A DNA stretch of 64,000 nt from Alphaproteobacteria bacterium (GCA_016735395.1 JAERRO010000001.1:2428-66427), one strand, 5' to 3'. Counted from the first letter of the stretch, positions 4,611 to 63,433 are shown. Notes: generated from the letters alone by a model not told the origin. Numbers and translations: made by a program.

Positions 4611-7600
4611 TCAAGGTAAACATTGACTCCATTGAGCCGTAGGGTTTAATCTAACTCTAAACTCGTTAGCAGGGCAATTATAGTCAGATTTATTTTCCCA
4701 ACCATTCTCTCCCGTAATAATACTACTAGAGAAAGTATAACTAGAACAAACATCCGTCTGTTTATTAAACTCACTATTCGCAAGATTCGTTTCGCTACAA
4801 TCTATAGCAGATCTGATATCCTTTTCTTCTTCGGTAAGGTCATTTATATCAACGGTACACAGGCTATAAGGAGTCGTAACTTTTATATAACTACACATAT
4901 TATAGGAGGAAGTCGTTACAGAACTTTCAGCAATAGCATTTACTACTGAAAATGATTTAGAACTTTCTTGTCCTGCGAGTTTCATCTCTTCTAGTATCGT
5001 CTCTGCAGTGTTTAATAGATCTTGATAATGGACAGCATGGTCCCTCAAGAGTGTAGGGAAGAAAACGGAACCGTAATTGTTTTTTACAAAATAGGACTCA
5101 CTAGGAATAATAGTAGGCGATTGTCTCGTAAAACCAGCTTCAGTCGCACATAGATCCGCCGTATTAAGACAAGGATTGTCGGGATTATCTCTGATAAAGA
5201 CCAACCGTTCTATGAAGTCTTTAAAGGTATGTTGCGGATATTTCTCTGCAACCCATGCAGGTGCATCCCACAAGTAAAGTCCCTTATCACTGTTAGAAAG
5301 TGAACCAGCTAATGAACCGACTGTATCAGATGTAGGGTTAAGAGGCGACAATATCATAACGATGCGGTGATCGTCTATAGATAAAATGTCCTCACCCGTT
5401 ATATTACCAGCTTTATCTGTATTTTTTCTAGTAATGAACGGGAGATTTTCAAATGGGTTCGTCCTACTAGAGGACGGAGACTCCGCATCTTTAATATCTC
5501 CTCGTATCCAACCTAGAAGTTGTCCTGCCAATACTACCTTTGGAGCGGTGATCCCTATACCAGCTCTACGATTGATAAATGGAATGCCGACAAAGTGATT
5601 AGAGTTGATATCTTCTATAGGAGATTCAGGGTCTATACCAAAATTAATCTCATCGTAAGACTTAGCATCGCCGTTTTCGTCAGAGATAAAATTCAAATAA
5701 CATAGAGTCGTCCACCCACCTAGATTTCCCCACTGTCTGAAAGAACCGTTTGTACAGAACCCTTGATCAAAATCATTATAAGTGTATTGATTTGTAGAAT
5801 AGATAAAGTCGACTTGATCGTATCCTACGAAGTCGCTCTTATCTTGATCTAGAGTACTAGCATTATCCCAATTTAGGTAATATAGTTCTTGACCGTCTAC
5901 ATACTGGAAATTATCGGTGTCTACCTCCTCAAAAGATAGATCTTCTCCGCTACTACCTTTCGCATCGAATCTGTCTACTATATTCGTCATATAATACGAT
6001 AAAATTCTCAAGTTAAAAGTATCTTGCCCGGTATTAACCAATCTAGAAGGATACCTCCAGGCATAAACACATGGAGATGTATGCAGAGATGTAATAAACG
6101 GAGAGATATTTCTGACACCGCTTGTCGGATTCTCGTAGACCCGTATATATATAAAGGCTCTTCTTTCGGCTATTAAATTTGTGTCTTTAACAAGAGAATT
6201 CTTGCAGAATTGAAATTTACAAGCACCCCATTGTTGGACTACATTATTATTTACATCTAACATCTGTTCCCACTGTCTTCTCATACCTTCAGGACAACCT
6301 ACATTAGTAAATTTATCTGTAACCATCTTTCCGCCTACGATATGAGACCCGTGATATGTAGGTATATTATTGCAGGTACCTGTTGAAATGCTGATAGTAT
6401 TGTTATTTATATTTATAAAGTTCCCGTTATATTCTGTAATAGTAGAACTCGTATTTATATTGAAGAAGTCGTAATTATCGAATGTATAAGTCCTAAAATT
6501 TATATCGGCGATTTGACCGTTTACCATAATATCGTTACATATTTCTATATCGTTACAAAGTTCTAATTCGGCATCTGCATCTTCGTCAAAACTACAACCG
6601 TAGAAAGGCCAGTGATTATAATCTATAATGGCATCATCGACCCGTTTCATAATCTGTTTCTGCGGATGATTGGCAGTTTTATCACCTACGGATACAGGAA
6701 TAGGTTTTATACAATATTGTTCTAAATCTAGTTCGGCATTCTTTAAAATAGTTCCTGTAAATAACTTCCGTTCTCCTACTTCACAAACAGTATCATCGTC
6801 TCTGTCTTCGTCATCCCAGATGGTTAAGAGATCGTCGAGATTTTCTAAGATATAATTTCTGTTTATGTTATCATCTATAGGGATAAGATTTAGTTGTCCT
6901 ATAATCGACGATAAAGTAGTATTATGAGTTAATTTTGACTCTAGTTTATCCCTAAAATTTCCGGGAGAAACATTATTGAAGAAAGAAGTGGAGATACAAA
7001 AGTTATTATCGTCACGAATACACTCTATATTTTTGTCGTCGTACATAGGTAAAAGAGCTTGAGAAGTGTATTGCACCCTTTGATGCAGACACTCTAGATC
7101 TTTTGAACCTGTATCACTCTCGTCTACAATAGGTACATTCGTGTTTAAAGCTCCGTATAGATTTTCTCTACCGCTTTCGCTCCGTCGTATAAAAGGAAGT
7201 TTGGTGGTAGTCGTGTTAATAGTGTCTTGAGAATAATCTTGGTATATAGATAGCGGAGGATTTTCTATCAACCCTGAATCACTATTACATGTACTCCAGT
7301 TTCCTATGGCTGTTCTATTAGGTTGAGAGCTGATAATTAGAGTAGGCTTATCGATACCTGGCACCCATTTATAGACACAATTGTCTTCTTCTCTATAAAT
7401 TAAAGCATAATTAGAATTATCTACCATAGGAATATTTTTACAGTAGGGTTTAGCTTTACAAGAATGACTAGGAGAAATTCTTTCATATCCATTCGGACAA
7501 TCAGGTATTAGATAAGATGGCATAGTAATACAACTGTCGGCTCCGATGTGTACATGCCCATTGATTTCACATGTATCATTATGATTGCCTTCGATACTAC

Positions 7601-8894
7601 AAGTATCACTTAACCCAAGATGTGAATTTAGGACTTTCTTATTGCCACAATCTAGACAAATAAATCGCCCGGTTTTATATAGTCCTCCGATACGGATGTC
7701 TATATCGTTCATCTGATATTTTATTTCATCACTTAATAGTCCTATCTGTTCTATATCTCTGAAAGCAAAGAATGTCCCGAAACTACTATCTTTATTAGAA
7801 CTTAGCGGAGTGGATTCACAGTAGTTGCTACTAGCAGGATTACTAGAGATACAGTCTTCATTGTTAGAAGCCTTTTTAGGACTAGGAATACATAACCAAT
7901 GTGTACAGTCTTCCGACAATATAGGGGTCTCACAGGCAGTGCAAGGTGTCTCTTTTCCTATAATTTTTACAGGATTAACGATGGTAACTTTACCACTGTC
8001 ATCTACGACTCTCCGACTACACTGGTCATAAATCTCGTCGGCTTTATCTGTATCTTCAAAATAATAACAGGCACATTCTCCCGTAGTTTTGTCGAAGATG
8101 TAAATTTCGTTTGCTTCACAATTAGCTTCAAATATATTACATTGTCCCGTATTTTCTAAGTCGGCGGAGTCTTCGACATCTATAACACAGAAACCTGTAG
8201 TAGTATCAGGTTTTAGACCCACTGGACACAAATCAAGAGAGTTAACATCTCTACATACCAACCTATTCCCGTATAATGCCTTAATCTGTCCCGTAGGACA
8301 TTCTATATCGTTGGAACTTAACTTTTCAGAAAGTTTAAACTGTGAATTAGAAAAAGAGGTCATCATAACTAAAGAACCTACTTCTATCAATAGACTTTTG
8401 ACGATTTTATCATTGATGTAGACGGACTCTTTAGACATAGAATGATTAACAACTCTCATATCTTTAGAACTCTCAATATCCCATGCAATACCGATATTTG
8501 TGATATTTCTAAATTTATTATATAAAATATTTAATATCTTCCCCCTAGATATCGTATCGACAGGTTTAGATACAGAGATAATAATTTGTTCTACAGCATA
8601 ATCATCTTGAGAACACTCGAAAGTAAGTTTGCTATCTTTAACACAGAATTTATGAGATTCTATCTCGTATCTAATACCGCAGGTAGTTTTTGTAGGGAAT
8701 ATAAAAGAATTTCCGACTAAAGTAGTTTTATCTATATAGATGGCAGTAGAATGTTCTTCACTTAAACAAGTAATAAGAGCCTCTAGAGGTATCTCTTGAA
8801 CTAGTGTATCTTTAAACTCGTCTAAAGAAGGCGATTGACTATAGTAATAATTACTTAAAAAGATAAAACTCAAAAGTAGAAGTATAATATTCAT
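4611..8894 (-). CDS. Giant (1427 aa) secreted cysteine-rich protein; function unknown
   Basis: Long uninterrupted ORF with N-terminal signal peptide MNIILLLLSFIFLSNYYYSQS. Cys-rich modules (e.g. CPVGLKPDTTTGFC, GECACYY) reminiscent of EGF-like or extracellular repeats. No catalytic motif recognised. Confidence 0.6.
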   Translation of the reverse strand: MNIILLLLSFIFLSNYYYSQSPSLDEFKDTLVQEIPLEALITCLSEEHSTAIYIDKTTLVGNSFIFPTKTTCGIRYEIESHKFCVKDSKLTFECSQDDYAVEQIIISVSKPVDTISRGKILNILYNKFRNITNIGIAWDIESSKDMRVVNHSMSKESVYINDKIVKSLLIEVGSLVMMTSFSNSQFKLSEKLSSNDIECPTGQIKALYGNRLVCRDVNSLDLCPVGLKPDTTTGFCVIDVEDSADLENTGQCNIFEANCEANEIYIFDKTTGECACYYFEDTDKADEIYDQCSRRVVDDSGKVTIVNPVKIIGKETPCTACETPILSEDCTHWLCIPSPKKASNNEDCISSNPASSNYCESTPLSSNKDSSFGTFFAFRDIEQIGLLSDEIKYQMNDIDIRIGGLYKTGRFICLDCGNKKVLNSHLGLSDTCSIEGNHNDTCEINGHVHIGADSCITMPSYLIPDCPNGYERISPSHSCKAKPYCKNIPMVDNSNYALIYREEDNCVYKWVPGIDKPTLIISSQPNRTAIGNWSTCNSDSGLIENPPLSIYQDYSQDTINTTTTKLPFIRRSESGRENLYGALNTNVPIVDESDTGSKDLECLHQRVQYTSQALLPMYDDKNIECIRDDNNFCISTSFFNNVSPGNFRDKLESKLTHNTTLSSIIGQLNLIPIDDNINRNYILENLDDLLTIWDDEDRDDDTVCEVGERKLFTGTILKNAELDLEQYCIKPIPVSVGDKTANHPQKQIMKRVDDAIIDYNHWPFYGCSFDEDADAELELCNDIEICNDIMVNGQIADINFRTYTFDNYDFFNINTSSTITEYNGNFININNNTISISTGTCNNIPTYHGSHIVGGKMVTDKFTNVGCPEGMRRQWEQMLDVNNNVVQQWGACKFQFCKNSLVKDTNLIAERRAFIYIRVYENPTSGVRNISPFITSLHTSPCVYAWRYPSRLVNTGQDTFNLRILSYYMTNIVDRFDAKGSSGEDLSFEEVDTDNFQYVDGQELYYLNWDNASTLDQDKSDFVGYDQVDFIYSTNQYTYNDFDQGFCTNGSFRQWGNLGGWTTLCYLNFISDENGDAKSYDEINFGIDPESPIEDINSNHFVGIPFINRRAGIGITAPKVVLAGQLLGWIRGDIKDAESPSSSRTNPFENLPFITRKNTDKAGNITGEDILSIDDHRIVMILSPLNPTSDTVGSLAGSLSNSDKGLYLWDAPAWVAEKYPQHTFKDFIERLVFIRDNPDNPCLNTADLCATEAGFTRQSPTIIPSESYFVKNNYGSVFFPTLLRDHAVHYQDLLNTAETILEEMKLAGQESSKSFSVVNAIAESSVTTSSYNMCSYIKVTTPYSLCTVDINDLTEEEKDIRSAIDCSETNLANSEFNKQTDVCSSYTFSSSIITGENGWENKSDYNCPANEFRVRLNPTAQWSQCLP

Positions 8895-50754: not shown

Positions 50755-51615
50755 GTGTCGTCTATTTCTATCATATTTTCTAAAATAACTCGTGAATACT
50801 CTCAAAAAGGACACAATATGGCTTCTCCGTCAATAATAATTACTGCTTTTTCTATTATAAAGGGGGTCTTCGAAGTTGTCACTTCGTGGAAGCAGACGAA
50901 TTCTACTACTACAAATTCTATCATAAAAAGGACCGAGATAATCGAAAATGATGCTTCTATTACTCCTAAATTTTTTCTAGGATATATTAGCGAAAATTAC
51001 GAATCGGGGAAGGCGAAGACTAAAGCCATCAATCTTGTACGAGACAAAATTACAAGAAAAATTGTCTGTAATCCTATGGATCCCGGCGGATGTAGCTACG
51101 GGAGATGGCAAATTTCTACTAGGCGAAAGACTATGCTAAAATTTCTAAAATATTTGGAGAAACATAATATTAGGTTCTTCGACAAGTTAAATAAAGCAGG
51201 CGGAGAGACTGGTGCGACTAACGGGTGTAATAAATTTATTTCCGCCTGGAGATCTATCGCTACGGATCTGGAGTTTCAAAAGTTAGAATACTTCTTCATC
51301 AAAACATCGCACTATGATGTCCTGCTGTCTCCTATATCTAAAATTTGCCCCGACTATTTTGAAAGACATTATATATTAAAGAATGTACTTTGGTCTTGCG
51401 GAATACAACACGGAAAACGGGGAACTACGATGATCTATAACAGAGCCTTTAAACAGTTAGACGACGATCCTAGCGATCTAGAAATTATCGAGGCCATCTA
51501 TTTTGAAAGAAAGAAACTCGGTACATATTTTTCCGATTGTGTAGATCTGCATAAATCGCTTAAAAGAAGATTCAACGGTGAAGAAAGAAAAGTAATATAT
51601 TTTTTAAATAGTTAG
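50755..51615 (+). CDS. Hypothetical protein (probable start 50818, MASPSII...)
   Basis: AAAGGA RBS 7 nt before the 50818 ATG; hydrophobic N-terminus. A weak lysozyme/transglycosylase-like E-S-G...G.SYG.WQ pattern is not convincing. Confidence 0.4.
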   Translation: MSSISIIFSKITREYSQKGHNMASPSIIITAFSIIKGVFEVVTSWKQTNSTTTNSIIKRTEIIENDASITPKFFLGYISENYESGKAKTKAINLVRDKITRKIVCNPMDPGGCSYGRWQISTRRKTMLKFLKYLEKHNIRFFDKLNKAGGETGATNGCNKFISAWRSIATDLEFQKLEYFFIKTSHYDVLLSPISKICPDYFERHYILKNVLWSCGIQHGKRGTTMIYNRAFKQLDDDPSDLEIIEAIYFERKKLGTYFSDCVDLHKSLKRRFNGEERKVIYFLNS

Positions 51616-51617
51616 AG

Positions 51618-52190
51618 TTGACAACTATAATTTATGTTATATATATCTATAATATAAAGGATAATATCGTGCAAGAAAATATTTGTCTAACTCTTAAAAA
51701 ATATAAGCAAAAGAAGATACTGACGGAGGTCGTAAACAGTTTAGGGGTAGATGATAAATATGTCGCTAATATAGATCTATTTCATCTGACTCTTATAAAT
51801 GCATACTGTAGGTATAGAAAAGAGAAAAAGAAGCAGAAACATAAAAAGATTCAGGTTAGCCATAAAATAGATAGTTGTATACAAAAATATGAGGCCGATG
51901 TAGTTCCAAAGTCGTTAACCTTTATGAAAAATAATAGATATATATTTATAGTTTTACTAGTTAAATATAATCAACAGATAATAGATAGAAATACCCGTCT
52001 GTCTAAAAAATTCTACGGGAATAAGATTCTAAAATTTATACCTCATATTACTCTTGCGAAGATTCCTAAAGTCGATAAAATTTCTTTACCTGATTTGTCA
52101 AGATTTAATGTTAAAAGATTGCCTAAAATCACGATGGTGGGTGAAAATTTATATAGCCGTTTGAATAAAGGCCTTAATTTATCTAGATAG
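51618..52190 (+). CDS. 2H phosphoesterase superfamily protein (LigT/cyclic phosphodiesterase-like)
   Basis: Two H-x-T-x motifs about 90 aa apart (FHLTLI and PHITLA), each in a hydrophobic context typical of 2H enzymes; 190 aa. Confidence 0.45.
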   Translation: MTTIIYVIYIYNIKDNIVQENICLTLKKYKQKKILTEVVNSLGVDDKYVANIDLFHLTLINAYCRYRKEKKKQKHKKIQVSHKIDSCIQKYEADVVPKSLTFMKNNRYIFIVLLVKYNQQIIDRNTRLSKKFYGNKILKFIPHITLAKIPKVDKISLPDLSRFNVKRLPKITMVGENLYSRLNKGLNLSR

Positions 52191-52220: not shown

Positions 52221-52832
52221 TTAGAAAATATCTTTTTCTGCAGTCGAGTCTAGTCTAGAAATAATCAAATTCCAGTCAATTAAATTATCTAAAGTAGATC
52301 GAACAAAATCTGCCCGCAAATTTTTGTAGTCTAAATAATAGGCATGTTCCCATACATCTATGACTAGTAAAACTACTCCGCCATACAATAGTGGGGTTTC
52401 GCCATTAAGTGTATTTTTTATTTCTAAAACATTTTCTTTATTGAGTACTAACCATACCCATCCGGAGCCAAAAAGTCCTAAAGAAGATTTTACGAACTCT
52501 TCTTTAAAGTTGTCTACGGAGCCGAAGTCTTTTACGATTAGAGATTTTAATTTACCGTCTTGAAAATCAACTGATTTCTTTAACTGTTTAAAAAACATTG
52601 TGTGATTGTAGTGTTGTCCTGCATTATTAAAAATGCCGACATTCTTATCGCTACTAGACTTCTTTATAACCTGCTCGATATCTAGCCCGACATAGTCCGT
52701 ACCTTCAATCAACTTATTTAGATTATTCACATATGTTTGGTGGTGTTTGCTATAGTGTATCTCTACAGTTTCCGCGGACATATACGGCGATAAATCGTCA
52801 TAGCCATAATCTAGTTTTGGTATCTCAAACAT
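52221..52832 (-). CDS. sodB: Fe/Mn superoxide dismutase
   Basis: FEIPKLDYGYDDLSPYMSAETVEIHYSKHHQTYVNNLN and DVWEHAYYLDY. Start taken at the Met with AAGGAG RBS (52832); the upstream in-frame ATG at 52856 is unlikely. Confidence 0.9.
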   Translation of the reverse strand: MFEIPKLDYGYDDLSPYMSAETVEIHYSKHHQTYVNNLNKLIEGTDYVGLDIEQVIKKSSSDKNVGIFNNAGQHYNHTMFFKQLKKSVDFQDGKLKSLIVKDFGSVDNFKEEFVKSSLGLFGSGWVWLVLNKENVLEIKNTLNGETPLLYGGVVLLVIDVWEHAYYLDYKNLRADFVRSTLDNLIDWNLIISRLDSTAEKDIF

Positions 52833-52901: not shown

Positions 52902-52984
52902 TATTCTAGAATTTCATACTTGATTGTTAAACTATAAGTTGATATAGTAGGAATAAATAAAACTACGATCGCAGGGAGGTAAAA
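52902..52984 (+). repeat. Copy 1 of a duplicated promoter/5'-UTR segment. It lies upstream of the 2TM-A gene and contains a TTGATT-17-TATAGT promoter at 52920..52948.
   Basis: 52908..52966 recurs at 54030..54088 with 2 mismatches. In copy 2 it is fused to a 29-bp piece of the sodB 5' coding region. Confidence 0.7.
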
Positions 52985-54001
52985 ATGGATAGAAAAAAGT
53001 TTGAAAATATAATATCACAAATTAATGATACATGTGATAAAATTCAAGAATTTGAAGATGTCACTAAACCTGAATTAATTAAAAAAAATAGATTTGGTGG
53101 AGGGTTTGGGGAGTATCTTTCAAGACATAGTTTTGATGTAAGCAATATTAAAAAGAAAATAAATAAACTATTAGATATAGACTTTAGTATCTTTTATGAT
53201 AATGCTGAGATATTAGCTATTCAAAACTTAATACAAATACTTTTAGATCACTGTAACAGATATAATAATGGTAATTCTGGTTATCTCTTTACAGAAGAAC
53301 ATTATAATAATACCTTTAAAAACAACAGATATGAAATAAATGAACTAATAGATAATTTACAGACAAAAAATTACGAGTTTGAAACCATTATCTCTATAGT
53401 TACTAATAATGAGATAAAAAAATTTTCTGATATAAACAAGATATACGAAAATATAGAGCAGAGTAAAACTGCATTAGAATCTATTAAAACAAATGAAAAT
53501 GCCTCGCAGATCGCTATGGAAAATATTAAGGTGGCTACGAATACCATTGGTGTAATAAAAAAAGCAGAGGGATTTGCAACTATAGCAGAAAAAAGTCATA
53601 AAAAGGCTCAAAAATATGAGTGGGTTATTTTTATATTTGCATTATTGTTGATGGGGCTAGTAGTACTAGCTTTTATAAAAATTGATAGCATATTTTTTTC
53701 TCGTTTAATCTTTTTAGTTCCTCTATTTACAGTTTCACTTATTTATCTCATTATATTAGAAAAAAGATACAGAATCAGGGCTTTTAAATACAAGGATCTG
53801 GAGGTTTCTATTTTATCTTTGTCGGCATATCTAGGAGATATTAGCGATAAACCTATGGAAGAATTGTCTGCTAAAGATACTTTTAAATTAAAGATGGCAG
53901 AATTTTATTATAAGCAGGTTTACGACGAGACTAAAATAAAGGAAAAAAATATTACGGAGCTTGTGACGAGTACCATAAAGAGTGCTAAAGGGACGACCTA
54001 G
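52985..54001 (+). CDS. Two-TM membrane protein A (soluble N-domain + 2 TM helices + C-terminal helix); candidate defense effector
   Basis: 338 aa. GGAGG RBS. TM helices WVIFIFALLLMGLVVLAFI and LIFLVPLFTVSLIYLIIL. Same architecture as 56034..57017. Confidence 0.5.
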   Translation: MDRKKFENIISQINDTCDKIQEFEDVTKPELIKKNRFGGGFGEYLSRHSFDVSNIKKKINKLLDIDFSIFYDNAEILAIQNLIQILLDHCNRYNNGNSGYLFTEEHYNNTFKNNRYEINELIDNLQTKNYEFETIISIVTNNEIKKFSDINKIYENIEQSKTALESIKTNENASQIAMENIKVATNTIGVIKKAEGFATIAEKSHKKAQKYEWVIFIFALLLMGLVVLAFIKIDSIFFSRLIFLVPLFTVSLIYLIILEKRYRIRAFKYKDLEVSILSLSAYLGDISDKPMEELSAKDTFKLKMAEFYYKQVYDETKIKEKNITELVTSTIKSAKGTT

Positions 54002-54103
54002 GCGATAAATCGTCATAGCCATAATCTAGAATTTCATACTTGATTGTTAAACTATAAGTTGATACAGTAGAAATAAATAAAACTAAATTTTGGGAGTTTC
54101 GTT
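54001..54103 (+). repeat. Copy 2 of the duplicated segment: a sodB 5' fragment (= 52787..52815) fused to the promoter region (= 52908..52966), lying upstream of mod. Promoter TTGATT-17-TACAGT at 54040..54068.
   Basis: The 29 bp ggcgataaatcgtcatagccataatctag is identical to sodB codons ~6-15. It is followed directly by aatttcatacttgattgttaaactataagttgata. Confidence 0.7.
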
Positions 54104-56032
54104 ATGGAAGATAATCTATTAAACAGTATTCTGGAGCTTTTCAAAAGTAAAAAACTAGAACAATATTACAACGGGGAAGGTCTTCTAACTAATAAGATAG
54201 AAGAGGATGCCCTTAAACTAGATTCTACATTACTAGAAGTTCTACTAGAAGACGAGGACACACAGAAGGCATTTTTTGCTACGGTAGGAGATATTAAAGT
54301 TTTCGATAAAATAAAATTTCAGTTATACATAAACAGTAAAGAATTTTTAAAAGATAGTTTTACTAAATACAAACAAAACATAGGATTAACAGACGAATAT
54401 GGTAAGGGGCTGAAACAAAATAATAATGTAGTTCTAAACTGGCCGTACAAAGATTGTATTTTGGAAGGCGGGCAAGATAAGGAAGACAAAAGCAGGAAAG
54501 AAGTTTTCTATAATGAAGTGTTGGCTCCCGAATATATAAATATACTTACAGACAAAAAGGCCTTTCATAATGCCGTTAGAGTTAAAGGCGAGGGCGACAA
54601 AGAAGAGCCTGTTACAGACTTTAATAGAAATGAGGACGGAACTATTACAGATAATTTAATGCTAAAGGGAAATAATCTACTAGTTCTACATAGCCTCAAA
54701 TCTCAATTTGCCGGCAAGATAAAACTAATTTATATTGATCCCCCTTATAATACTGGAAACGACGGCTTCAAATATAACGATAGATTTAATCATTCTAGCT
54801 GGCTTACCTTTATGAAAAATAGACTTGAAGTTGCTAGAGAACTTCTAGCCGACGACGGTGTTATCTTCGTTCAATGCGACGACAACGAACAGGCCTATCT
54901 AAAAGTCCTTATGGACGAAGTCTTTGGAAGGGCGAATTTTGTTATTAATTTAGTCTGGGAAAATAAGGAAGGCGGTGGGAAGTCCGATAGTATAACTTTT
55001 AGAAGAAAGCACGAATATATAATTACATATGCAAAAATAATAGATAACATAGAAATATATGGAAGAGATGTTGAGGACGTCGAAAGGTATAGATTATCTG
55101 ATATACATGAAGAGTATCGTGGAAAATATCAATTAATTAAACTAGATAGTGCGAGTCTAGGATATATAAAATCATTGGACTACTATATATTATCTCCAGA
55201 GAATACTCGTATATTTCCTAACAAAGATGACAACAAAATTAGTCGTTGGAGGTGGAATAAAAAGAAATTCGAATGGGGGGTAAAAAATGACTTTGTCGTA
55301 ATAAAAAAAGATAGAGACGATAATTGGGCTGTCTACACTAAACAATATCTAAATTGTGATAACAATGCAAATATTAAGAGAAGGACACTACAGCCAATAG
55401 GTGTAATTTCTAAATTTTCAAACACTCAATCTAATATACATATGAAATCTTTGTTCGGAACTGCTAAGTTTTCTTATTCAAAGCCAGAGCAATTAATTGA
55501 ATTTTATTTACAAATATCAACAAAGCCGGGGGATATAGTTCTAGATTTTTTCGCAGGGAGTGGGACTACGGCGGGGGTAGCTCACAAGATGGAGCGACAA
55601 TGGATCACTATAGAACAGATGGACTATATTCAGGACATCACAAAAGCTAGGCTGAAAAAAGTCGTAGATGGCGAACAGGGAGGTATCTCTAAAGCTATAG
55701 ACTGGAAAGGGGGCGGAGAATTCGTCTATATGGAAATGATAGAGAAAAATAATCGTTATTTTAATGAAATTATACAGTCGGAATCAGACGAAACTTTAAA
55801 AATACTATACAAACAAATTAAAGAAGAAACTTTCTTTAGATATGATATAGACCTAAAGGGACTAGATGCTCTAATGGACGACTCCATTTCCTTAAAACAT
55901 AAAAAGGAAGCCCTCACTCAATGCCTAGATAAAAATCACCTCTATTTGAACTACTCTAGCATCGACGACCGAAACTTTAATAAAGACGAAACCGTCTCTA
56001 ACCTCAATAAAAAATTCTACAAGGAGGTGTAG
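54104..56032 (+). CDS. mod: Type III restriction-modification methyltransferase (Mod), N6-adenine, beta class
   Basis: Motif IV IYIDPPYNTG precedes motif I DFFAGSGTTAGVA (permuted beta-class order); 642 aa. No simple-sequence repeat inside. Confidence 0.9.
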   Translation: MEDNLLNSILELFKSKKLEQYYNGEGLLTNKIEEDALKLDSTLLEVLLEDEDTQKAFFATVGDIKVFDKIKFQLYINSKEFLKDSFTKYKQNIGLTDEYGKGLKQNNNVVLNWPYKDCILEGGQDKEDKSRKEVFYNEVLAPEYINILTDKKAFHNAVRVKGEGDKEEPVTDFNRNEDGTITDNLMLKGNNLLVLHSLKSQFAGKIKLIYIDPPYNTGNDGFKYNDRFNHSSWLTFMKNRLEVARELLADDGVIFVQCDDNEQAYLKVLMDEVFGRANFVINLVWENKEGGGKSDSITFRRKHEYIITYAKIIDNIEIYGRDVEDVERYRLSDIHEEYRGKYQLIKLDSASLGYIKSLDYYILSPENTRIFPNKDDNKISRWRWNKKKFEWGVKNDFVVIKKDRDDNWAVYTKQYLNCDNNANIKRRTLQPIGVISKFSNTQSNIHMKSLFGTAKFSYSKPEQLIEFYLQISTKPGDIVLDFFAGSGTTAGVAHKMERQWITIEQMDYIQDITKARLKKVVDGEQGGISKAIDWKGGGEFVYMEMIEKNNRYFNEIIQSESDETLKILYKQIKEETFFRYDIDLKGLDALMDDSISLKHKKEALTQCLDKNHLYLNYSSIDDRNFNKDETVSNLNKKFYKEV

Positions 56033-56033
56033 G

Positions 56034-57017
56034 GTGGATAACAGAGAAAGACTTATAAAGACTATACAGAAAAAATTTTTTAGTAGGTTTGATATTTTTT
56101 ACGACCTAAACGACAGTGTATGGTTCGAGTTTGTAGATAAAGTTAGTGGTTATAGTCCTATATATGATTTTACGGATTACATTACACCGTATCTTATAAA
56201 GGGTATAGTAGATAAAATTGATACCACTACTCTCAAAGGCATAGTTAAACACATAGCTAACATTTGGGCTATAATAGACACATCTAGGTATAAAAACAAA
56301 GATTCATATTCAGGTAAAGATCAGATAATTTTTTATAAAGAAAATCTAAACGAACAAGACGACATAATAACAGAATTTAAAAAAATAAAAAGTTTATTGG
56401 AAAAATATAAATCTATTCTCGGAGAAAAGGATGAAGATCTGAAAGAAGAACATATGATAGAAACGAAATCATTCGCAGAATCATTCCTCGAGTCTAAAAA
56501 CAGTTATAATAGAAATATATGGATTATGTACATAGTACTACTTTTAACCTTAATAGCTATTGTGGGATTATATTTAATTGGGACTAAAACTTTCAACAAT
56601 TTAGATTTTATTAGTACAATAATATCACGGTTATTATTTTCTGCTCCGCTTATTTTCTTTGCATTTATTATAACGAAAAATCTATTTAACTTTCAATCTA
56701 TGTATGAAGCATACAACCATAAACAAAGGGTCGCAGAAGCTTTTTTAATTTTAGATCTAAAAATGGATAAAGAAAAAGAATGGCTTCTTAAAAAAACATT
56801 TCACGGGGGAAGCATCGAGCAAGGTCGCCTAGAACAAATTAACAAAGAGAAAGATCTATTATCTGGGACTCTTATGTCGGTAGTTCAAGAAAATCCTACA
56901 CATTTTTTAACAAAAGATAAATCTATGAAGAAATACCTAAAAGAACTAAAAGAAATTAAAGACCTGTTTATGGCTCCTAATATTATAGAAAGCAATCGAG
57001 TAGATAAAGGTAAATAA
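56034..57017 (+). CDS. Two-TM membrane protein B, embedded between mod and res; GTG start coupled to the mod stop
   Basis: GTG at 56034 lies 1 nt after the mod TAG, with AAGGAGG at 56021..56027. TM helices IWIMYIVLLLTLIAIVGLYLI and LLFSAPLIFFAFIIT. The stop overlaps the next ATG (TAATG). Confidence 0.55.
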   Translation: MDNRERLIKTIQKKFFSRFDIFYDLNDSVWFEFVDKVSGYSPIYDFTDYITPYLIKGIVDKIDTTTLKGIVKHIANIWAIIDTSRYKNKDSYSGKDQIIFYKENLNEQDDIITEFKKIKSLLEKYKSILGEKDEDLKEEHMIETKSFAESFLESKNSYNRNIWIMYIVLLLTLIAIVGLYLIGTKTFNNLDFISTIISRLLFSAPLIFFAFIITKNLFNFQSMYEAYNHKQRVAEAFLILDLKMDKEKEWLLKKTFHGGSIEQGRLEQINKEKDLLSGTLMSVVQENPTHFLTKDKSMKKYLKELKEIKDLFMAPNIIESNRVDKGK

Positions 57018-57030
57018 TGAATGATAATTT
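57001..57030 (+). repeat. 30-bp direct repeat, copy 1 (RBS + ATG + first 4 codons MNDN); copy 2 is at 57966..57995, the res start
   Basis: tagATAAAGGTAAATAATGAATGATAATTT vs taaATAAAGGTAAATAATGAATGATAATTT: 29/30 identical; the two flank the DUF3800 gene. Confidence 0.75.
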
Positions 57031-57856
57031 TATTATCTTTGTAGATGAATCAGGAGATCATAGCCTGTCTAAAATAAATCCTGAATTCCCTATATTCAAT
57101 CTAGTTTTTGTAGTATTCGAACAGAATCATTACTGTAATGTCGTTCTGCCAAAATTTAATCTACTTAAGTTAAAATACTTTAATAGTACTAATGTAATAT
57201 TTCACGAAAGAGAAATTAGAAAATCACTAAATAACTTTACAATACTAAAAAATTCCGTAGTAAGAAATAATTTTATAAATGATGTAGATACATTTTTAAA
57301 AAATATATCTTTCGAAATCATTACAATTAATTTTTTAAAAGAAAAAAATGCTAGGGAAGAAGTTAATATATACTCAAAATGTATGGAGGTAGCTCTTCCT
57401 ATTATTCAAAAATTTTTAGAAAAAAACTCTAGTTTAGAAAACAAAACTTTAATTACTTTTGAAGGGAGGGGGAAACAAGAAGATAGATCTCTAGAATTAG
57501 AATTCTTGAGGGAAACAAAGGACTATCAATATAACAACCTAAATATAGACATCATAACTAAACAGTCAAATTCTACCGGGCTACAGATCGCAGACTTAAT
57601 AGCTAGACCTATCGCAAATGAAATATTAAACTCGAAAAAAATAAACGATATTAAAGACTCTAATTGTGTAGGTTTCGGAATCGACAAAATAACAATAAAT
57701 GAAATGTTTCCTAAACCTTGCCACAATAGAGCTTTTGGATGTATAAAACCTAATATATATACTTTGCAAGTAATAATAAAACATGAAGTAATAAATAATA
57801 TGAAGGAAGATCTAAATTTTAATATAAAGCGAAAAAGGGCGGTTACACCACCCTAA
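57017..57856 (+). CDS. DUF3800-like protein
   Basis: N-terminal FIIFVDESGD motif and later GLQIADLIARPIA motif, as in the DUF3800 family; 279 aa. Start overlaps the stop of the 2TM-B gene. Confidence 0.45.
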   Translation: MNDNFIIFVDESGDHSLSKINPEFPIFNLVFVVFEQNHYCNVVLPKFNLLKLKYFNSTNVIFHEREIRKSLNNFTILKNSVVRNNFINDVDTFLKNISFEIITINFLKEKNAREEVNIYSKCMEVALPIIQKFLEKNSSLENKTLITFEGRGKQEDRSLELEFLRETKDYQYNNLNIDIITKQSNSTGLQIADLIARPIANEILNSKKINDIKDSNCVGFGIDKITINEMFPKPCHNRAFGCIKPNIYTLQVIIKHEVINNMKEDLNFNIKRKRAVTPP

Positions 57857-57981
57857 AGACGCCGATTGAGCATTCCCAATCCATTTATAATATATTATAT
57901 ACTATAAAAATTAAGAATGCAAGAAAAATAAAAAAAAGGGGACTTGACAAAGTCTAAAGATTAAATAAATAAAGGTAAATA

Positions 57982-60570
57982 ATGAATGATAATTTAGTAT
58001 ATTCTTTAAATGTCCTAGCAGGAGAAGATATTTTTAACCCTAGTGAAATTCCTGACTATATTACAAATAATGTCGCTCATAAACTGCGGGACTATCAAAC
58101 CGAAGCCCTAGCTAGATTTCGTTTCTATATCGACGATGATGGATACAAGAACAAAAAGAAGCCGATACATCTGCTGTTTCATATGGCTACGGGGTCAGGG
58201 AAGACTATCGTTATGGCTGGCTGTATTCTAGAACTATATAAAAAGGGGCATAGAAATTTCCTGTTCTTTGTTAACTCCGACAATATAATTGACAAAACTA
58301 AACATAATCTTCTATATCAAAATTCTAATAAATATCTGTTCAATAAAGATAAAATTATTATAGATAATAAGGCCGTTGCCGTAAAAGTCGTAGAAAATTT
58401 TAACGAAGCCGATGACGATTCTATCAATATATGTTTCAATACTATTCAAAAACTGCACGGAAACCTTATCAACACAGGCGAAAATGGAATTTCTACCGAA
58501 ACTTTTAAGGATACGAAAGTTGCTATAATATCCGACGAAGCCCATCACATCAATAGTATGACTAAAAAAGAATCCAAGGATGAACAAAACTGGGAGAACT
58601 CCGTTCTAGGTATTCTAAATGCGAATAATGACAATGTTATGCTAGAGTTTACCGCGACTATGGGTATGAAAAACGAGGCTATAGCAAAAAAATACAACGA
58701 TAAAGTTATATACGACTACACTTTCTTGAAATTTAATATAGACAAATATTCTAAAAATGTTTTTACTCTCGCCTCAACTTTCGATAATAACTATAAAATT
58801 TTACAGGCGATCGTTCTATCTCAATATAGACTAAAACTAGCAGTGCATCATAAGGTAAACCCGCTGGTTAAACCTGTCATTCTTGTGAAATCTAAATTTA
58901 TTAAAGATAGCACAAATGACTACAAAGAATTTTACGAGTTCTTGGAAAGACTAAAAGAAACAGATCTAGATAAAATTGAAAATGGCTCCGAGTCTAAAGA
59001 AATAAAATCTGCCTTTGAATTCTTCAAAAAAAATAAAATCACTAATGAAAATCTAGTCCTAGAGCTAAAGCAAGCCTTTAAAGTCGAAAATAGTGTTATC
59101 ACGGACTCAACAAAATCTACTCTTAATGCAAAGGTTCTACTCAATACACTAGAAGATGAAAAGAACAAAATTAGAATCATATTCGTCGTTAATCAACTTA
59201 ATGAAGGATGGGATGCTATCAATCTATATGACATCGTAAGGCTATATAATACTAAAGATAAAGGTAATGATGCTACTGTATCCGAGGCTCAACTAATAGG
59301 AAGGGGGGCTAGATACTGCCCCTTTACTACCAAAGACTCAGACGAAGATAAGTATAAACGAAAATTTGATGCCGATGCTAATAACGAACTTTCTATCCTT
59401 GAAGAATTCTACTTTCACTGCGATGATAATAGCAAATATATATCAGAGCTAAAGGCAGAACTAAAAACGCAAGGTATCATAGAAGAAGAAGTCCCCAACC
59501 TAGTTAGTATTGAGCTGAAAGAGAGTTTTAAAGAATCTGACTTCTATGAAAAAGGTTGTATTTTTCTAAATAAACAAGAACCTACTGATAAAGCAAAAAA
59601 CTTTAAAGAAGTCAAAAAACTTATAAAAAGTCAAGCATTTAAATACAATTCTACTATAGAAGATGGTAGGTCTAATAGTAAAAATAATCTATTAAAGGGT
59701 GATATTCTAAATGAAAACTCCAGTACAAAAAGAACAGAAACTTTAGATAAAGATGATTTTAGTAAACAGATTATTCAAACTGCTTTTGATAGAAATCCAT
59801 ACTTTAATTTTGATAAAATGAAAAAATACTGTGGGGGAAAAGTTGAGTCTATGAAGGACTTTATAGATCAAGTTATGGAGAATGTAAAAGTTGAGGTTAG
59901 ATATCAAGGAAACAAAGATACATTATTAACCCCGCGAGTGAAACTAGATATATTTTCTAATGTCCTAGGGGAAATCTCGAAAATTATGGAGAAGAATAAC
60001 ATAGAAAAGAGGGGGACGAGGGAATTCTCACATAAGAAAATATTAGAAATATTTATAGATAAAAAATTCAAGAGTAGTGGTACTGAAAAAGATATGAGGG
60101 GGCATAAGTGGTTCGCCTATGACAAAAATTACGGTACGAGTTTAGAAAATGATTTTATAAAATATATTATAGAAAAAAAAGAAGAGATAGAAGACAAATA
60201 TGCAGAGTTTTATCTATTAAGAAGTGAACGGTTTTTTAGGCTGTACGACTTCGAACAAGGTCGAGGATTTGAGCCTGACTTTGTTATGTTTTTTAAGAAA
60301 AATGGAAGTGAAGAATTTTCTAACCTACAAGTGTTTATAGAGCCTAAAGGTGGTCATCTATTAGAACATGATAAATGGAAATCTAAATTTTTAGAGAGCA
60401 TAAATAAAAATGTAGAATTTGGTGACGATCTATTTAATGATTCTAAAGATTTTAAAATAATAGGTCTCCCATTTTATGTTGACAATAAAGAACTACTGAT
60501 CGACGAAAAGAAGTTTACAGAACGAAAATTTAAAGAGGCTTTTAAAGAACAAATATTTAACAACGACTAA
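57982..60570 (+). CDS. res: Type III restriction enzyme Res subunit (SF2 helicase + C-terminal PD-(D/E)xK endonuclease)
   Basis: LRDYQTEAL; motif I MATGSGKT; motif II IISDEAHH; C-terminal nuclease FEPDFVMFF...VFIEPKG; 862 aa. Confidence 0.9.
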   Translation: MNDNLVYSLNVLAGEDIFNPSEIPDYITNNVAHKLRDYQTEALARFRFYIDDDGYKNKKKPIHLLFHMATGSGKTIVMAGCILELYKKGHRNFLFFVNSDNIIDKTKHNLLYQNSNKYLFNKDKIIIDNKAVAVKVVENFNEADDDSINICFNTIQKLHGNLINTGENGISTETFKDTKVAIISDEAHHINSMTKKESKDEQNWENSVLGILNANNDNVMLEFTATMGMKNEAIAKKYNDKVIYDYTFLKFNIDKYSKNVFTLASTFDNNYKILQAIVLSQYRLKLAVHHKVNPLVKPVILVKSKFIKDSTNDYKEFYEFLERLKETDLDKIENGSESKEIKSAFEFFKKNKITNENLVLELKQAFKVENSVITDSTKSTLNAKVLLNTLEDEKNKIRIIFVVNQLNEGWDAINLYDIVRLYNTKDKGNDATVSEAQLIGRGARYCPFTTKDSDEDKYKRKFDADANNELSILEEFYFHCDDNSKYISELKAELKTQGIIEEEVPNLVSIELKESFKESDFYEKGCIFLNKQEPTDKAKNFKEVKKLIKSQAFKYNSTIEDGRSNSKNNLLKGDILNENSSTKRTETLDKDDFSKQIIQTAFDRNPYFNFDKMKKYCGGKVESMKDFIDQVMENVKVEVRYQGNKDTLLTPRVKLDIFSNVLGEISKIMEKNNIEKRGTREFSHKKILEIFIDKKFKSSGTEKDMRGHKWFAYDKNYGTSLENDFIKYIIEKKEEIEDKYAEFYLLRSERFFRLYDFEQGRGFEPDFVMFFKKNGSEEFSNLQVFIEPKGGHLLEHDKWKSKFLESINKNVEFGDDLFNDSKDFKIIGLPFYVDNKELLIDEKKFTERKFKEAFKEQIFNND

Positions 60571-60653: not shown

Positions 60654-61715
60654 ATGACAAATGTGAAAAATAACAGTTTAAATCTTTTTGATTATGCGAC
60701 AAGTGAACTTTCTCAAGATGCTTTTTTGTGCTGGCTACTAGCCCATCATCCTATATGTCAAAACGAAGATAGTGAAATAAAAGATAAAGATATTTCTCAA
60801 TGTGCAGAAAATTTATTAAATGAACTACTAGGAAAACATTCAACAGAACTAGGAAAAATAACAGAACTAGAAATAAAAAGGCAATATAAAAAGATTGATA
60901 TATTAGTGATAATCAATAAAAAATATGGACTAATCATAGAAGATAAAACCGATACATCTGAACACGGAAACCAATTGGGTAAATACTTTAAGGTTGTAGA
61001 GGAAAAGGGATTAATCCCTCTAGGAATATATTTTAAAACTGGTGATGAACTAAAAAGAGATGAAATAAAAAGAGATAAAATAAAAAGAGATGAAATAAAA
61101 AGAGATGAAATAAAAAATAAGAGTGATGAAGATATAGAATATACATATAAAACATTTTATAGAGATGAGTTATTAGAGGTATTAAAAAAACACAAAACAA
61201 AAAATGATATCTTTACTTCATTCTATAATAGGCTAGACAAATTTGAAGAAGATTATAAATCATACGAAAACAACAAAGTTGCCGATTGGTCTAGTAGAGC
61301 ATGGTCAGGATTTTTTCATAATAAACTATATAAAAATGATAGACAAAATTTTGATAAATTCTGGTATGGATATGTTCCAAATCGAAGTGGCGGTTTTCTA
61401 TGCTTCGCATGGGAGTTTAGATACATAGACAAAATAAAAGTATATTTTCAATTTGAAATAAGAAAAGTAGGTAATACGATGAATCCTATTTTAGTAGTTA
61501 AAACATCTTGTGAAAATAAACCGCTACCAGATGTAGCCCTCAATAAAATAGATGAATATATAGGTAAAGACTTGTGGAAGAAATTTAAGAGGCGGAGAAG
61601 TGATGGAAAAACATCTTCTAGGCTAATCTATATTTTAGAAGATCTTAATAATATGGAATATGGCGAGCTTATAGAATCTATTGAGAAAGCAACAAAATCT
61701 TTTGATTTAAAATAG
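60654..61715 (+). CDS. Hypothetical PD-(D/E)xK nuclease-like protein with an internal KRDEI tandem peptide repeat
   Basis: N-terminal SELSQDAFLCWLLAHHP and KKIDILVIINKKYGLIIEDKTDTSEH (D...E-D-K arrangement). Central LKRDEIKRDKIKRDEIKRDEIK encoded by 4 x 15-bp repeats. Confidence 0.4.
   Translation: MTNVKNNSLNLFDYATSELSQDAFLCWLLAHHPICQNEDSEIKDKDISQCAENLLNELLGKHSTELGKITELEIKRQYKKIDILVIINKKYGLIIEDKTDTSEHGNQLGKYFKVVEEKGLIPLGIYFKTGDELKRDEIKRDKIKRDEIKRDEIKNKSDEDIEYTYKTFYRDELLEVLKKHKTKNDIFTSFYNRLDKFEEDYKSYENNKVADWSSRAWSGFFHNKLYKNDRQNFDKFWYGYVPNRSGGFLCFAWEFRYIDKIKVYFQFEIRKVGNTMNPILVVKTSCENKPLPDVALNKIDEYIGKDLWKKFKRRRSDGKTSSRLIYILEDLNNMEYGELIESIEKATKSFDLK
61053..61112 (+). repeat. 4 tandem copies of a 15-bp unit AAAAGAGATGAAATA (one copy with G->A), in-frame within 60654..61715
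   Basis: Read directly: aaaagagatgaaata / aaaagagataaaata / aaaagagatgaaata / aaaagagatgaaata. Confidence 0.85.
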
Positions 61716-61773: not shown

Positions 61774-62724
61774 TTAAGATTGAGAAGGATATTCACATAA
61801 TATAAAAAATCCATTTCTTTCAACTGGTTCTCCCAAATTTTTGCCTTCTCTATATTTTTCTGCAAAAGGTTTATGGGAACATGAAATAGTTATCTTATCG
61901 TTATCGATCTCGAACATAAAATTTCCTCCTTGATTGTTCGTAAACATATCTACTCTAGAGGAGTCTCTATATTTATTGTAATTGATACAAGCGGAGGGGG
62001 CGTTTCCTATCATCGTTATTCCAGGGTTTACTATCTCTAGAAATGAAAAGCCTCTACCAGAATCCCTCCCATGATGAGGAGCTATAAATAAATCTATATT
62101 TGAAATATCATTCTTATGTTTTTTAATTAAATGTTCCCAAGTCTTATCATCACTATCACCACAAAATAATATCTTAAAATTACCTGTCTTATATAAGATA
62201 ACTCCAGAACAATCATTCCAGTCTCCAATTATATCAGCCTTTTGTATTAAATCTTTGGTTGGAGACAAAATCTTTAATCCGTCTTCTATTATAAAGCTTT
62301 TTTTAACGTCATCTTGTAAAGAGTGAGCTTTTTTTAATAGTTCTTTATAACAGTCCCAATCTTTTTTGTCTGTGTCAGAAATTTTTTCATCTGTTTTCTT
62401 TGTTTTATATCCCCAAAAATTATCAATCCCGATACATTCTTTTAATGCCTTTATTCCTTTTAAATGGTCCATATCTGGATGAGTTAAAAAAAATCTAAAT
62501 ATGGCTTCGTCTTTATAATACTTTTTTAAAAAATCGATAGGATTTATAGGATGTTTTTTCTCTCCGAAGTTTCCTCTCGTAGATGCTGTGACTGTTTCCG
62601 ATAACTGGATAGAATCTTTTAAAGACTTCCCGTTGTTAATATCAATCATCGTTAGTCTACCAGAATAATGTTGTATTATTGAGCTATCTCCATTACCTAC
62701 ATTTAGAAAATATATTTTTGACAT
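61774..62724 (-). CDS. Metallo-beta-lactamase-fold hydrolase (ComEC C-terminal/Rec2-like family)
   Basis: LNVGNGDSSII, HxHxDH-type LTHPDMDHLKG, FCGD, APHHGR; 316 aa. 11 bp downstream of the membrane-protein gene. Confidence 0.55.
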   Translation of the reverse strand: MSKIYFLNVGNGDSSIIQHYSGRLTMIDINNGKSLKDSIQLSETVTASTRGNFGEKKHPINPIDFLKKYYKDEAIFRFFLTHPDMDHLKGIKALKECIGIDNFWGYKTKKTDEKISDTDKKDWDCYKELLKKAHSLQDDVKKSFIIEDGLKILSPTKDLIQKADIIGDWNDCSGVILYKTGNFKILFCGDSDDKTWEHLIKKHKNDISNIDLFIAPHHGRDSGRGFSFLEIVNPGITMIGNAPSACINYNKYRDSSRVDMFTNNQGGNFMFEIDNDKITISCSHKPFAEKYREGKNLGEPVERNGFFILCEYPSQS

Positions 62725-62735
62725 TTTTTATCCTT

Positions 62736-63218
62736 TTAGTTTATATCTATTATTTTTACTATTTTAATAGCATGTTTTCTTATAGAAAAAGTAAACAAGA
62801 TTATAAATGCTAAGAATATCAGTGACATTGAAAACATTCCTTTAAACATTGTTACTAAAAACAGAATGATAAACAGAGTATTTATATTTCTTGAAAAACC
62901 ATATTCCCTTGAGAGAAGTTCTAATCTTGGATTTGTATTTAAAGCTTTGTTAAATAGAGTATGATCTCTCCACGGAATTATTTTAATAGATTTGAAACAA
63001 TTTTCTAGAACTAGAGAACCTAATCTACTAATAACAGTACCGATAAAATAAGAGAAAGAGAGATAAATGATATTTAAATTTACTCCAGAAAATTGGTCTA
63101 ATCGGTTCAAATCTACTTTTATATTTATAAGACTAAGACCTATTATAAATAATATTCCTATGAAAATTTTATTTACTACTTCATAAAACGGTATTCCTGT
63201 TTTCATATAGTCCTCCAC
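62736..63218 (-). CDS. Hypothetical polytopic membrane protein (3-4 TM), co-oriented with the MBL hydrolase
   Basis: 160 aa. Hydrophobic segments IFIGILFIIGLSLI, IIYLSFSYFIGTVI, LFIILFLVTMF and LIFLAFIILFTF. Confidence 0.4.
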   Translation of the reverse strand: MEDYMKTGIPFYEVVNKIFIGILFIIGLSLINIKVDLNRLDQFSGVNLNIIYLSFSYFIGTVISRLGSLVLENCFKSIKIIPWRDHTLFNKALNTNPRLELLSREYGFSRNINTLFIILFLVTMFKGMFSMSLIFLAFIILFTFSIRKHAIKIVKIIDIN

Positions 63219-63242: not shown

Positions 63243-63317
63243 TATAGTGTCGTTACTATGATTGGTGGGGGCAGGGGGATTCGAACCCTCGACCTGCTGA
63301 TTAAGAGTCAGTTGCTC
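63243..63317 (-). tRNA. tRNA-Lys (anticodon CUU)
   Basis: Reverse complement GGGGGCATAGCTCAGTGGTAGAGCAACTGACTCTTAATCAGCAGGTCGAGGGTTCGAATCCCCCTGCCCCCACCA; perfect acceptor stem, loop CTCTTAA with U33/A37, CCA encoded; 75 nt. Confidence 0.8.
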
Positions 63318-63433
63318 TACCACTGAGCTATGCCCCCATAATTTACTTACCTATATATAGACCGTTTATAAATAATTTTCAATACTAGACGACTACTTAT
63401 TTTGATCTTCTATTTCAATAGATCTATTCTACT

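Follow-up and report, generated by a model that had tools for sequence, protein, structure and literature searches.

How did two unrelated genes come to lie between mod and res of an operon for type III restriction and modification (R-M), and what might they do there? The question is raised by a 64,000-nt, AT-rich stretch of DNA (GCA_016735395.1, JAERRO010000001.1:2428-66427; hereafter the window) from an Alphaproteobacteria bacterium, in which the 1,949 nt between mod and res hold a gene for a protein with two transmembrane (TM) helices, here called 2TM, and a gene for a DUF3800 protein. The original prediction took these two genes for one cassette encoding an effector pair. The result for the window mainly corrects this first reading, as the two are independent passengers of the R-M operon rather than a co-evolved toxin pair. 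We give about an even chance to a composite operon, in which a type III R-M system gained the 2TM and DUF3800 genes in two steps and the DUF3800 protein works autonomously, as an effector in the second line.

Separate arrival of the two embedded genes

The four genes occupy exactly the coordinates first proposed for them (Table 1), all on the plus strand, co-directional and tightly packed. A gap of 1 nt separates the mod stop codon from the 2TM start, the 2TM stop codon and the DUF3800 ATG overlap in TAATG, and 125 nt lie between the DUF3800 gene and res. This spacing is operon-like and suggests co-transcription of all four genes. The 2TM open reading frame (ORF) is not a product of chance, because an open frame of 327 codons at 28.6% GC has a probability of ~1e-12 (arithmetic from base composition) and because its GTG start is preceded 5 nt upstream, inside the 3′ end of mod, by a perfect AAGGAGGTG Shine-Dalgarno sequence. 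Composition sets the two embedded genes apart from their hosts, with a GC content at third codon positions (GC3) of 0.24 for 2TM and 0.21 for DUF3800 versus 0.32 for mod and 0.29 for res.

Only the DUF3800 gene is bracketed by a 30-nt direct repeat, whose copies are 97% identical (27 nt exact) and spaced 965 nt apart. The first copy consists of the last 16 nt of the 2TM gene followed by ATGAATGATAATTT, and because the repeat spans both start codons, the DUF3800 protein begins with MNDNF and Res with MNDNL. Deleting one copy together with the intervening 935 bp restores a 2TM-res junction with a TAATG overlap, a junction that would resemble the mod-res coupling of related systems. It follows that DUF3800, with its trailer of 109 nt, joined an existing mod-2TM-res operon, the 935-bp segment being inserted at res codon 5 with duplication of 30 nt of the res start region. 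Since the repeat brackets DUF3800 only, the two embedded genes arrived separately.

Comparison with other bacteria agrees with a separate arrival. We examined the 80 closest DUF3800 loci, one genome per species, clustering the neighbouring genes and annotating the cluster representatives. None of these loci contains a relative of the 2TM protein, and of the 51 genes that directly adjoin R-M-linked DUF3800 genes, not one is predicted to encode a membrane protein. The pairing of 2TM with DUF3800 was found nowhere else in the searches made, within whose reach the exact four-gene architecture is unique. The repeat around DUF3800 alone and these two absences speak against the cassette, or effector pair, that had been proposed.

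Repeat-bounded DUF3800 genes also occur elsewhere. A narrow flank scan had made the repeat look unique to the window, an impression that we dropped when DUF3800 proved to be flanked by direct repeats in 11 of 81 loci on a wider, flank-to-flank comparison, versus 1 of 81 when the sequence was reversed as a control. L021 shows this most clearly: there the hsdM 5′ end is duplicated over 131 nt with 92% identity (6711-6841 / 7874-8004), the two copies bracket DUF3800, and a truncated hsdM′ ORF overlaps the DUF3800 start, an arrangement that follows the insertion logic of the window. Other flanking repeats measure 44, 37, 23 and 20 nt (Table 1), and because the length varies overall from 20 to 131 nt, they do not fit a fixed-length target-site duplication.

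The DUF3800 trailer folds better than shuffled sequence (z -2.8 and -3.2 in the window, -2.4 in L021 at 7715-7880), and a GC-rich hairpin at 57836-57854 spans the DUF3800 stop codon and on the minus strand would have the form of a terminator. No Rfam family matched the window trailer at E<=1. A structured 3′ trailer serving as a partner RNA is only suggested by these values.

DUF3800 genes in restriction-modification loci of other bacteria

An R-M gene (HsdR, HsdM, HsdS, Mod or Res) lies within three genes of DUF3800 in 25 of the 80 loci, always on the same strand. HsdR is found in 19 loci, HsdM in 14, HsdS in 13 and a type III-like Mod or Res in 3, and in one locus more an MmeI-type enzyme occurs near DUF3800. 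The genes typically run hsdM-hsdS-DUF3800-hsdR; L077 and L079 show Res-DUF3800-Mod, and L005 shows SNF2 helicase-DUF3800-Mod-Res. Among the ten best-scoring loci, five are R-M-embedded. For a gene picked at random, an hsd gene would be expected at most three genes away in well under 1% of cases, by a rough estimate rather than a computed control, so the enrichment is large. The clade thus habitually lodges in type I and III R-M operons, always co-oriented, and at many unrelated sites as well: 54 of the 80 loci have no R-M gene within three genes, with gyrB, ribonucleotide reductase and his genes among the neighbours. With about two thirds of its loci unrelated to R-M, DUF3800 is not obligately tied to these systems. 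In five genomes (L061, L040 and three others), DUF3800 lies among HisA/HisF family and IGPD genes, mostly on the opposite strand, which exemplifies insertion into a housekeeping operon. The notion of a defence-type gene inside the R-M operon is thus supported for DUF3800, with its 25 R-M-linked loci, and falls for the paired effector with 2TM.

A tighter bond, as the original prediction had it, would follow if the locus worked like the anticodon nuclease PrrC in the type I system EcoprrI (PMC12707154), with DUF3800 and/or 2TM as latent toxins that are held by Mod2Res or the R subunit and freed by phage anti-restriction, leading to abortive infection. Like PrrC and RloC, DUF3800 is an accessory nuclease-type gene between R-M subunit genes, co-oriented and presumably co-expressed, and here translationally coupled; in 16 loci it has R-M genes on either side, in 17 it directly adjoins HsdR or Res, and a coupling of this kind has been hypothesised for type I and III R-M (PMC3506569). 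The 54 loci without R-M genes, however, are the main argument against a strict PrrC-like dependence, for PrrC is almost exclusively R-M-embedded (bioRxiv 10.1101/2024.01.29.577857) whereas the window clade is so in ~30% of its closest relatives. The partner enzymes moreover differ in type (type I, type III, MmeI), which makes a conserved physical contact unlikely, and no relative of the 2TM protein is R-M-linked. The proteins differ as well, PrrC combining an ABC-ATPase with a HEPN-like nuclease in a type IC host, whereas the window DUF3800 has an RNase HII/PIWI-like fold, no ATPase and a type III host; neither embedded protein gave a Pfam or PADLOC match to an ABC-type ATPase or an anticodon-nuclease domain. 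We consider this explanation rather improbable.

The DUF3800 protein

The assignment of the second embedded gene to DUF3800 was confirmed by Pfam (PF12686, 48.6 bits versus a cutoff of 21, E 1.8e-12). A large protein set contains 645 homologues, the best at 48% identity. In a 33-sequence alignment, the window protein keeps all 26 invariant positions, which include D10, E11, H63, E149, E155, D156, Q190 and D193, and both the N-terminal D-E motif and the C-terminal QxxD motif are present. Structure modelling indicates an RNase HII/PIWI-like (RNase H-like) fold. DUF3800 proteins are described as having an RNase H-like fold and are linked to retron type VII, Cas12a2/a3 and Cas13 loci (PMC7736814, PMC10910872, PMC13594972, PMC12669027), TPR-DUF3800 proteins being accessories of Cas12a2/a3 (PMC13594972). 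The window protein shares with these effectors the Pfam family, the DE and QxxD motifs and the fold; unlike the retron VII- and Cas-linked members, it belongs to a stand-alone clade of ~240-280 aa without reverse transcriptase (RT), TPR or Cas partner. Retron type VII in particular found no match, with no RT domain in the neighbouring ORFs and no retron RNA in the Rfam scan.

DUF3800 has also been linked to eleven orphan RNA motifs (PMC5737381). The Rfam motifs associated with DUF3800 were absent from the window and from 20 related loci. An abiF RNA motif (RF03085, 52 bits versus a gathering score of 37), named after the abiF abortive-infection genes, lies at L011 6879-6915 in Legionella londiniensis, where DUF3800 follows it after ~55 nt.

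The pattern of insertions could also mean that DUF3800 is a selfish or neutral mobile cassette, kept since its excision would harm an addictive R-M system and of no use in defence, with 2TM as a stray mobile-element gene. The excess of variable-length repeat-bounded inserts over the control, the insertions in housekeeping neighbourhoods, the lower GC3 of both embedded genes and the prophage, transposon and phage locations of 2TM relatives (see below) all fit. The conservation of all 26 family-invariant residues argues instead for selection on DUF3800 activity; every R-M-linked copy is co-oriented with its R-M genes, DUF3800 comes without a transposase, an integrase or terminal inverted repeats, and the use that retrons and CRISPR loci make of the domain speaks for an effector. 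We regard a mere passenger as unlikely, too.

The two-transmembrane protein

Hydropathy bears out the two predicted TM helices, at about aa 159-187 and 192-218. The 327-aa protein is predicted to be all-helical with a two-TM hairpin at about aa 161-183 and 191-213, and its charge distribution suggests an N-in, C-in topology with both soluble parts in the cytoplasm. It has no match in Pfam, PADLOC, NCBIfam or PHROGs. The suggested likeness to SLATT proteins did not survive the Pfam check, which gave no SLATT match at E<=0.1 for the 327-aa protein and none at E<=1 for its relative P0123 (see below), and an identity as a CBASS or retron 2TM protein was rejected, as no model matched. The ten ORFs from 50.7 to 63.2 kb include no SMODS, SLOG or other nucleotide-signalling gene.

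Relatives are extremely rare. In a word-indexed search of 5.8e9 proteins the protein matched only itself (JJV93_00220), and a full HMMER search of 1.84e9 representatives of 15 billion proteins turned up a single credible relative, P0123 (E 5.8e-4); a second match, to an M78 peptidase, was rejected as spurious. Compared pairwise, the 327-aa protein and P0123 align with E 9e-12 and 34% identity over 154 aa, a region that takes in the two TM helices together with a post-TM motif. Searches with a profile made from the conserved half retrieved nothing from the 5.8e9 protein set or from viral contigs, and the 2TM protein itself had no phage match. With tblastn, a weak relative was found on 13 Acinetobacter and enterobacterial plasmids; it matches P0123 with 4e-13 and, on multi-resistance plasmids, opens the cargo of a Tn7-like element, immediately behind TniB-TniQ-transposase (L164 1-5555). 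A temperate phage of Providencia encodes another weak relative. The 2TM protein has three or four relatives in all, each very distant and each on a mobile element, with a shared core of two TM helices, APLIW, E-E-Y-x-H-K-x-x-(V/L)-A and NPxE and with helical, variable N-terminal halves.

The P0123 gene directly follows a CI-type repressor gene (HTH_3 + Peptidase_S24) and a gene of unknown function, ahead of the early genes of a prophage-like region (L003 930-3499). P0123 matches two PHROGs of unknown function, and its PADLOC matches to LmuB and ZorA were taken as noise because they fall over the coiled-coil N-terminal part. The relatives in the prophage and in the Tn7-like element occupy classic 'moron' positions. 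In having two close TM helices with helical cytoplasmic flanks, the 2TM protein resembles SLATT proteins, the 2TM protein of retron type IV and the exclusion proteins that prophages encode next to cI, and P0123 occupies just such a slot beside a CI-type repressor. It differs from the described two-TM hairpin effectors in that no SLATT, Pfam or PADLOC model matches it and no nucleotide-signalling partner is present, and the E-E-Y-x-H-K-x-x-(V/L)-A motif is family-specific, not assignable to a described family.

The type III core and its relatives

The identification of mod and res as type III genes was upheld by Pfam and PADLOC models. Mod matches N6_N4_Mtase (5.6e-47), the type III-specific N-terminal family TypeIII_RM_meth (3.2e-16) and PADLOC MTase_III (1.4e-170), and its translation contains the motifs DPPY and FAGSGTT (FxGxG); no phase-variable repeats were found within mod. 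Res matches Pfam ResIII (4.7e-31) and PADLOC REase_III (7.4e-124), with the helicase motifs ATGSGKT and DEAH and a C-terminal PD...ExK nuclease motif intact; GSGKT, DEAH and P765, D766, E787 and K789 are invariant in an alignment with four relatives. Both proteins keep their catalytic motifs, so that the R-M system is predicted to be intact. Canonical type III systems (EcoP1I, EcoP15I) likewise place mod before res and share the methyltransferase, helicase and PD-ExK motifs, whereas their mod and res genes overlap or lie a few nt apart, where two genes intervene here.

How unusual the split is was assessed in 29 loci with Res relatives at 32-41% identity. Mod and res are separated by -4 to +6 nt in 26 of them (including one with a frameshifted mod), in line with the expectation that the two genes normally adjoin, and the arrangement in the window is unusual. 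The remaining three carry a single unannotated non-membrane ORF (145, 192 or 229 aa) between mod and res, and none of the 29 has two genes, a DUF3800 gene or a membrane-protein gene there. The best plasmid relatives of Res share 35.9-40.6% identity; in three of the four plasmids inspected mod and res adjoin, and a Chryseobacterium plasmid has the 145-aa ORF in between. A viral-contig scan with the Res alignment yielded about 29 further full-length relatives, and a metagenome scan with Res, made to find an empty site, returned no close relative of this R-M system. The three single ORFs (L084, L091 and L112) are further candidates for type III-embedded genes, and two of them have a short GY(I/V)GE(F/Y)A motif in common. 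Three apparent inserts were rejected, that in L095 being the C-terminus of a frameshifted Mod, that in L085 a split gene and that in L086 an artefact of genetic code 4.

That both embedded proteins are accessory subunits, the 2TM coiled-coil tethering Mod2Res to the inner membrane at the site of DNA entry and DUF3800 processing RNA-DNA hybrids or nicked intermediates to aid restriction or limit self-damage, would suit the tight coupling of the 2TM gene to mod (1-nt gap) and ancestrally to res (TAATG overlap), the cytoplasmic placement of both soluble 2TM parts by positive-inside reasoning and the modelled RNase HII-like fold of DUF3800, and is very improbable given that 26 of 29 related type III systems lack an intervening gene, that no 2TM homologue accompanies any other R-M system in the searches made and that most DUF3800 genes are not beside R-M genes.

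The proposed composite operon and the points against it

Our preferred reading, a composite operon assembled in two steps, starts from the anatomy of the locus, the domain identities, the fold, the insertion scar and the comparative distribution, which are shown, and adds functional statements that we infer. Transcription of all four genes would start at the duplicated promoter region that precedes mod. DUF3800 would be a metal-dependent RNase HII/PIWI-like nuclease and a self-sufficient second-line effector against phages and plasmids, and would not be physically gated by Mod or Res. By analogy with DarTG2, which lies between hsdS and hsdR in a type I locus of enteropathogenic E. coli (PMC12255303), it would gain co-regulation and linkage from the R-M operon, an outcome that is general among genes recognised by their embedding in such operons (bioRxiv 10.1101/2024.01.29.577857). 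The 2TM protein would most likely be a membrane-anchored exclusion or abortive-infection protein, because its relatives adjoin a prophage CI-type repressor, ride as cargo in a Tn7-like element and occur in a temperate phage.

Several points weigh against this reading. Co-transcription is deduced from gene spacing, and a role for the 2TM protein, which lacks an informative homologue, is deduced from context; the single-sequence AlphaFold model of this protein is unusable (predicted local distance difference test, pLDDT, 43). The C-terminal 70 aa of the window DUF3800 are atypical and of low model confidence, so that the protein could be partly degraded. No PADLOC-DB v2 model matches it or eight R-M-embedded relatives. 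The literature examined contains no demonstrated function or nuclease activity for any DUF3800 protein, and the study of Cas13 CASK loci, whose Csx32 is a DUF3800 protein, found no role for Csx32. Finally, an insertion hot spot is known between hsdS and hsdR (PMC12255303), and the adjacency of DUF3800 and HsdR may only reflect this hot spot.

A more general scheme, which we think quite unlikely at present, is one in which stand-alone DUF3800 proteins form a new class of RNase HII/PIWI-like effectors, carried on repeat-bounded cassettes with a possibly structured 3′ RNA that insert at the 5′ ends of R-M subunit genes and provide a second line coupled to type I and III enzymes, with 2TM as a third layer.

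Neighbourhood of the operon

The surroundings of the operon look like a defence island, with a PDC-S26-like gene and PDC-M48A/B genes beside a tRNA-Lys gene. The PDC-S26-like gene (Table 1) may be the last gene of the res transcription unit; it contains a 15-nt tandem repeat in 4.9 copies (61044-61116) that encodes (KRDEI)n. On the minus strand at 61774-63218 lie an MBL-fold gene matching PDC-M48B (2.6e-32, with a weak 6A-MBL match) and a small membrane protein gene matching PDC-M48A (2.9e-16), a second candidate defence pair, beside tRNA-Lys(CTT) at 63263-63337. The 3′-end repeat of this tRNA was rejected as an island boundary, as it has no second copy in the window.

Upstream of mod, a 338-aa gene is bracketed by a duplicated sod 5′/promoter region, the second copy of which lacks 87 nt in between. 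This looks like a second cassette-type insertion or a recombination scar. The 338-aa protein shares the layout of the 327-aa protein, and has no family match in Pfam, PADLOC, NCBIfam or PHROGs and no plasmid match; its BLASTP match to the 327-aa protein (E 0.011) covers the TM region only, and we treat paralogy of the two as not established. Just upstream of sod (50755-52190) is a gene whose product carries a VgrG3-like C-terminal domain (4e-27); 2 nt behind it begins a 190-aa ORF, part of which is very low in GC, and the two may be a pair of the type VI secretion effector/immunity type.

Table 1 Features of the operon, its surroundings and the comparison loci. Positions without a locus name refer to the window.
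Feature	Position	Strand	Description
mod	54104..56032	+	Type III DNA methyltransferase, 642 aa (Pfam, PADLOC, translation)
Embedded gene 1 (2TM)	56034..57017	+	327 aa, GTG start, near-orphan
Embedded gene 2 (DUF3800)	57017..57856	+	Stand-alone DUF3800 protein, 279 aa
res	57982..60570	+	Type III restriction subunit, 862 aa (Pfam, PADLOC, alignment)
Direct repeat, copy 1	57001..57030	+	Last 16 nt of the 2TM gene, then ATG and 11 nt starting DUF3800
Direct repeat, copy 2	57966..57995	+	res ribosome-binding region, ATG and 11 nt
DUF3800 3′ trailer	57857..57965	+	Inside the repeat-bounded segment
Flanking repeat	L076 6837-6880 / 8485-8528		Around DUF3800
Flanking repeat	L044 6808-6844 / 8260-8296		Around DUF3800
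Flanking repeats	L035 and L081		Around DUF3800
ORF between mod and res	L084 4519-4956		145 aa, related type III system
ORF between mod and res	L091 972-1550		192 aa, related type III system
ORF between mod and res	L112 7254-7943		229 aa, related type III system
Promoter-region repeat, copy 1	52902-52965		Upstream of the 338-aa gene; promoter-like TTGATT-17-TATAGT
Promoter-region repeat, copy 2	54022..54085	+	64 nt, 95% identical to 52902-52965; precedes mod
29-nt exact copy	54001-54029		Identical to 52786-52814, part of the sod 5′ coding region; in front of promoter-region copy 2
338-aa gene	52985..54001	+	Helical N-terminal part, two-TM hairpin, C-terminal tail
Downstream gene	60654..61715	+	83 nt after res; Pfam PDDEXK_4 4.6e-4, below the curated cutoff; PADLOC PDC-S26 1.4e-11

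Relation to known systems and implications

The original prediction named no matching system and proposed the locus as a candidate for an undescribed one. The architecture is not conceptually new, because toxin-like genes inside type I and III R-M loci (PMC3506569) and defence systems embedded in R-M operons ('guilt-by-embedding', Payne et al. 2024, bioRxiv 10.1101/2024.01.29.577857) have been published. What stands is that DUF3800 embedding and this 2TM family are absent from the literature examined. Neither of the two studies names DUF3800 or analyses type III R-M, and recurrent embedding of DUF3800 in R-M loci, repeat-bounded inserts and the 2TM family are described neither in the DUF3800 literature examined nor in the embedding survey. 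As in the systems found by guilt-by-embedding (DarTG2, PDC/HEC), the embedded genes are co-oriented and also found alone elsewhere, and the wider island of the window carries two PDC candidates. The differences are that the survey covered Hma, BREX, DISARM and type I R-M, whereas the host here is type III, and that neither embedded protein matches PADLOC-DB v2 models, those of the PDC/HEC candidates included.

The locus thus extends guilt-by-embedding to type III R-M, beyond the coverage of the published survey, with the embedded DUF3800 gene as a candidate additional antiviral gene. The 2TM protein defines a tiny family that is confined to mobile elements and absent from all family libraries searched. 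DUF3800 proteins are widespread beside immune systems and orphan RNA motifs, and their embedding in R-M operons offers a concrete, clonable setting for the study of their function.

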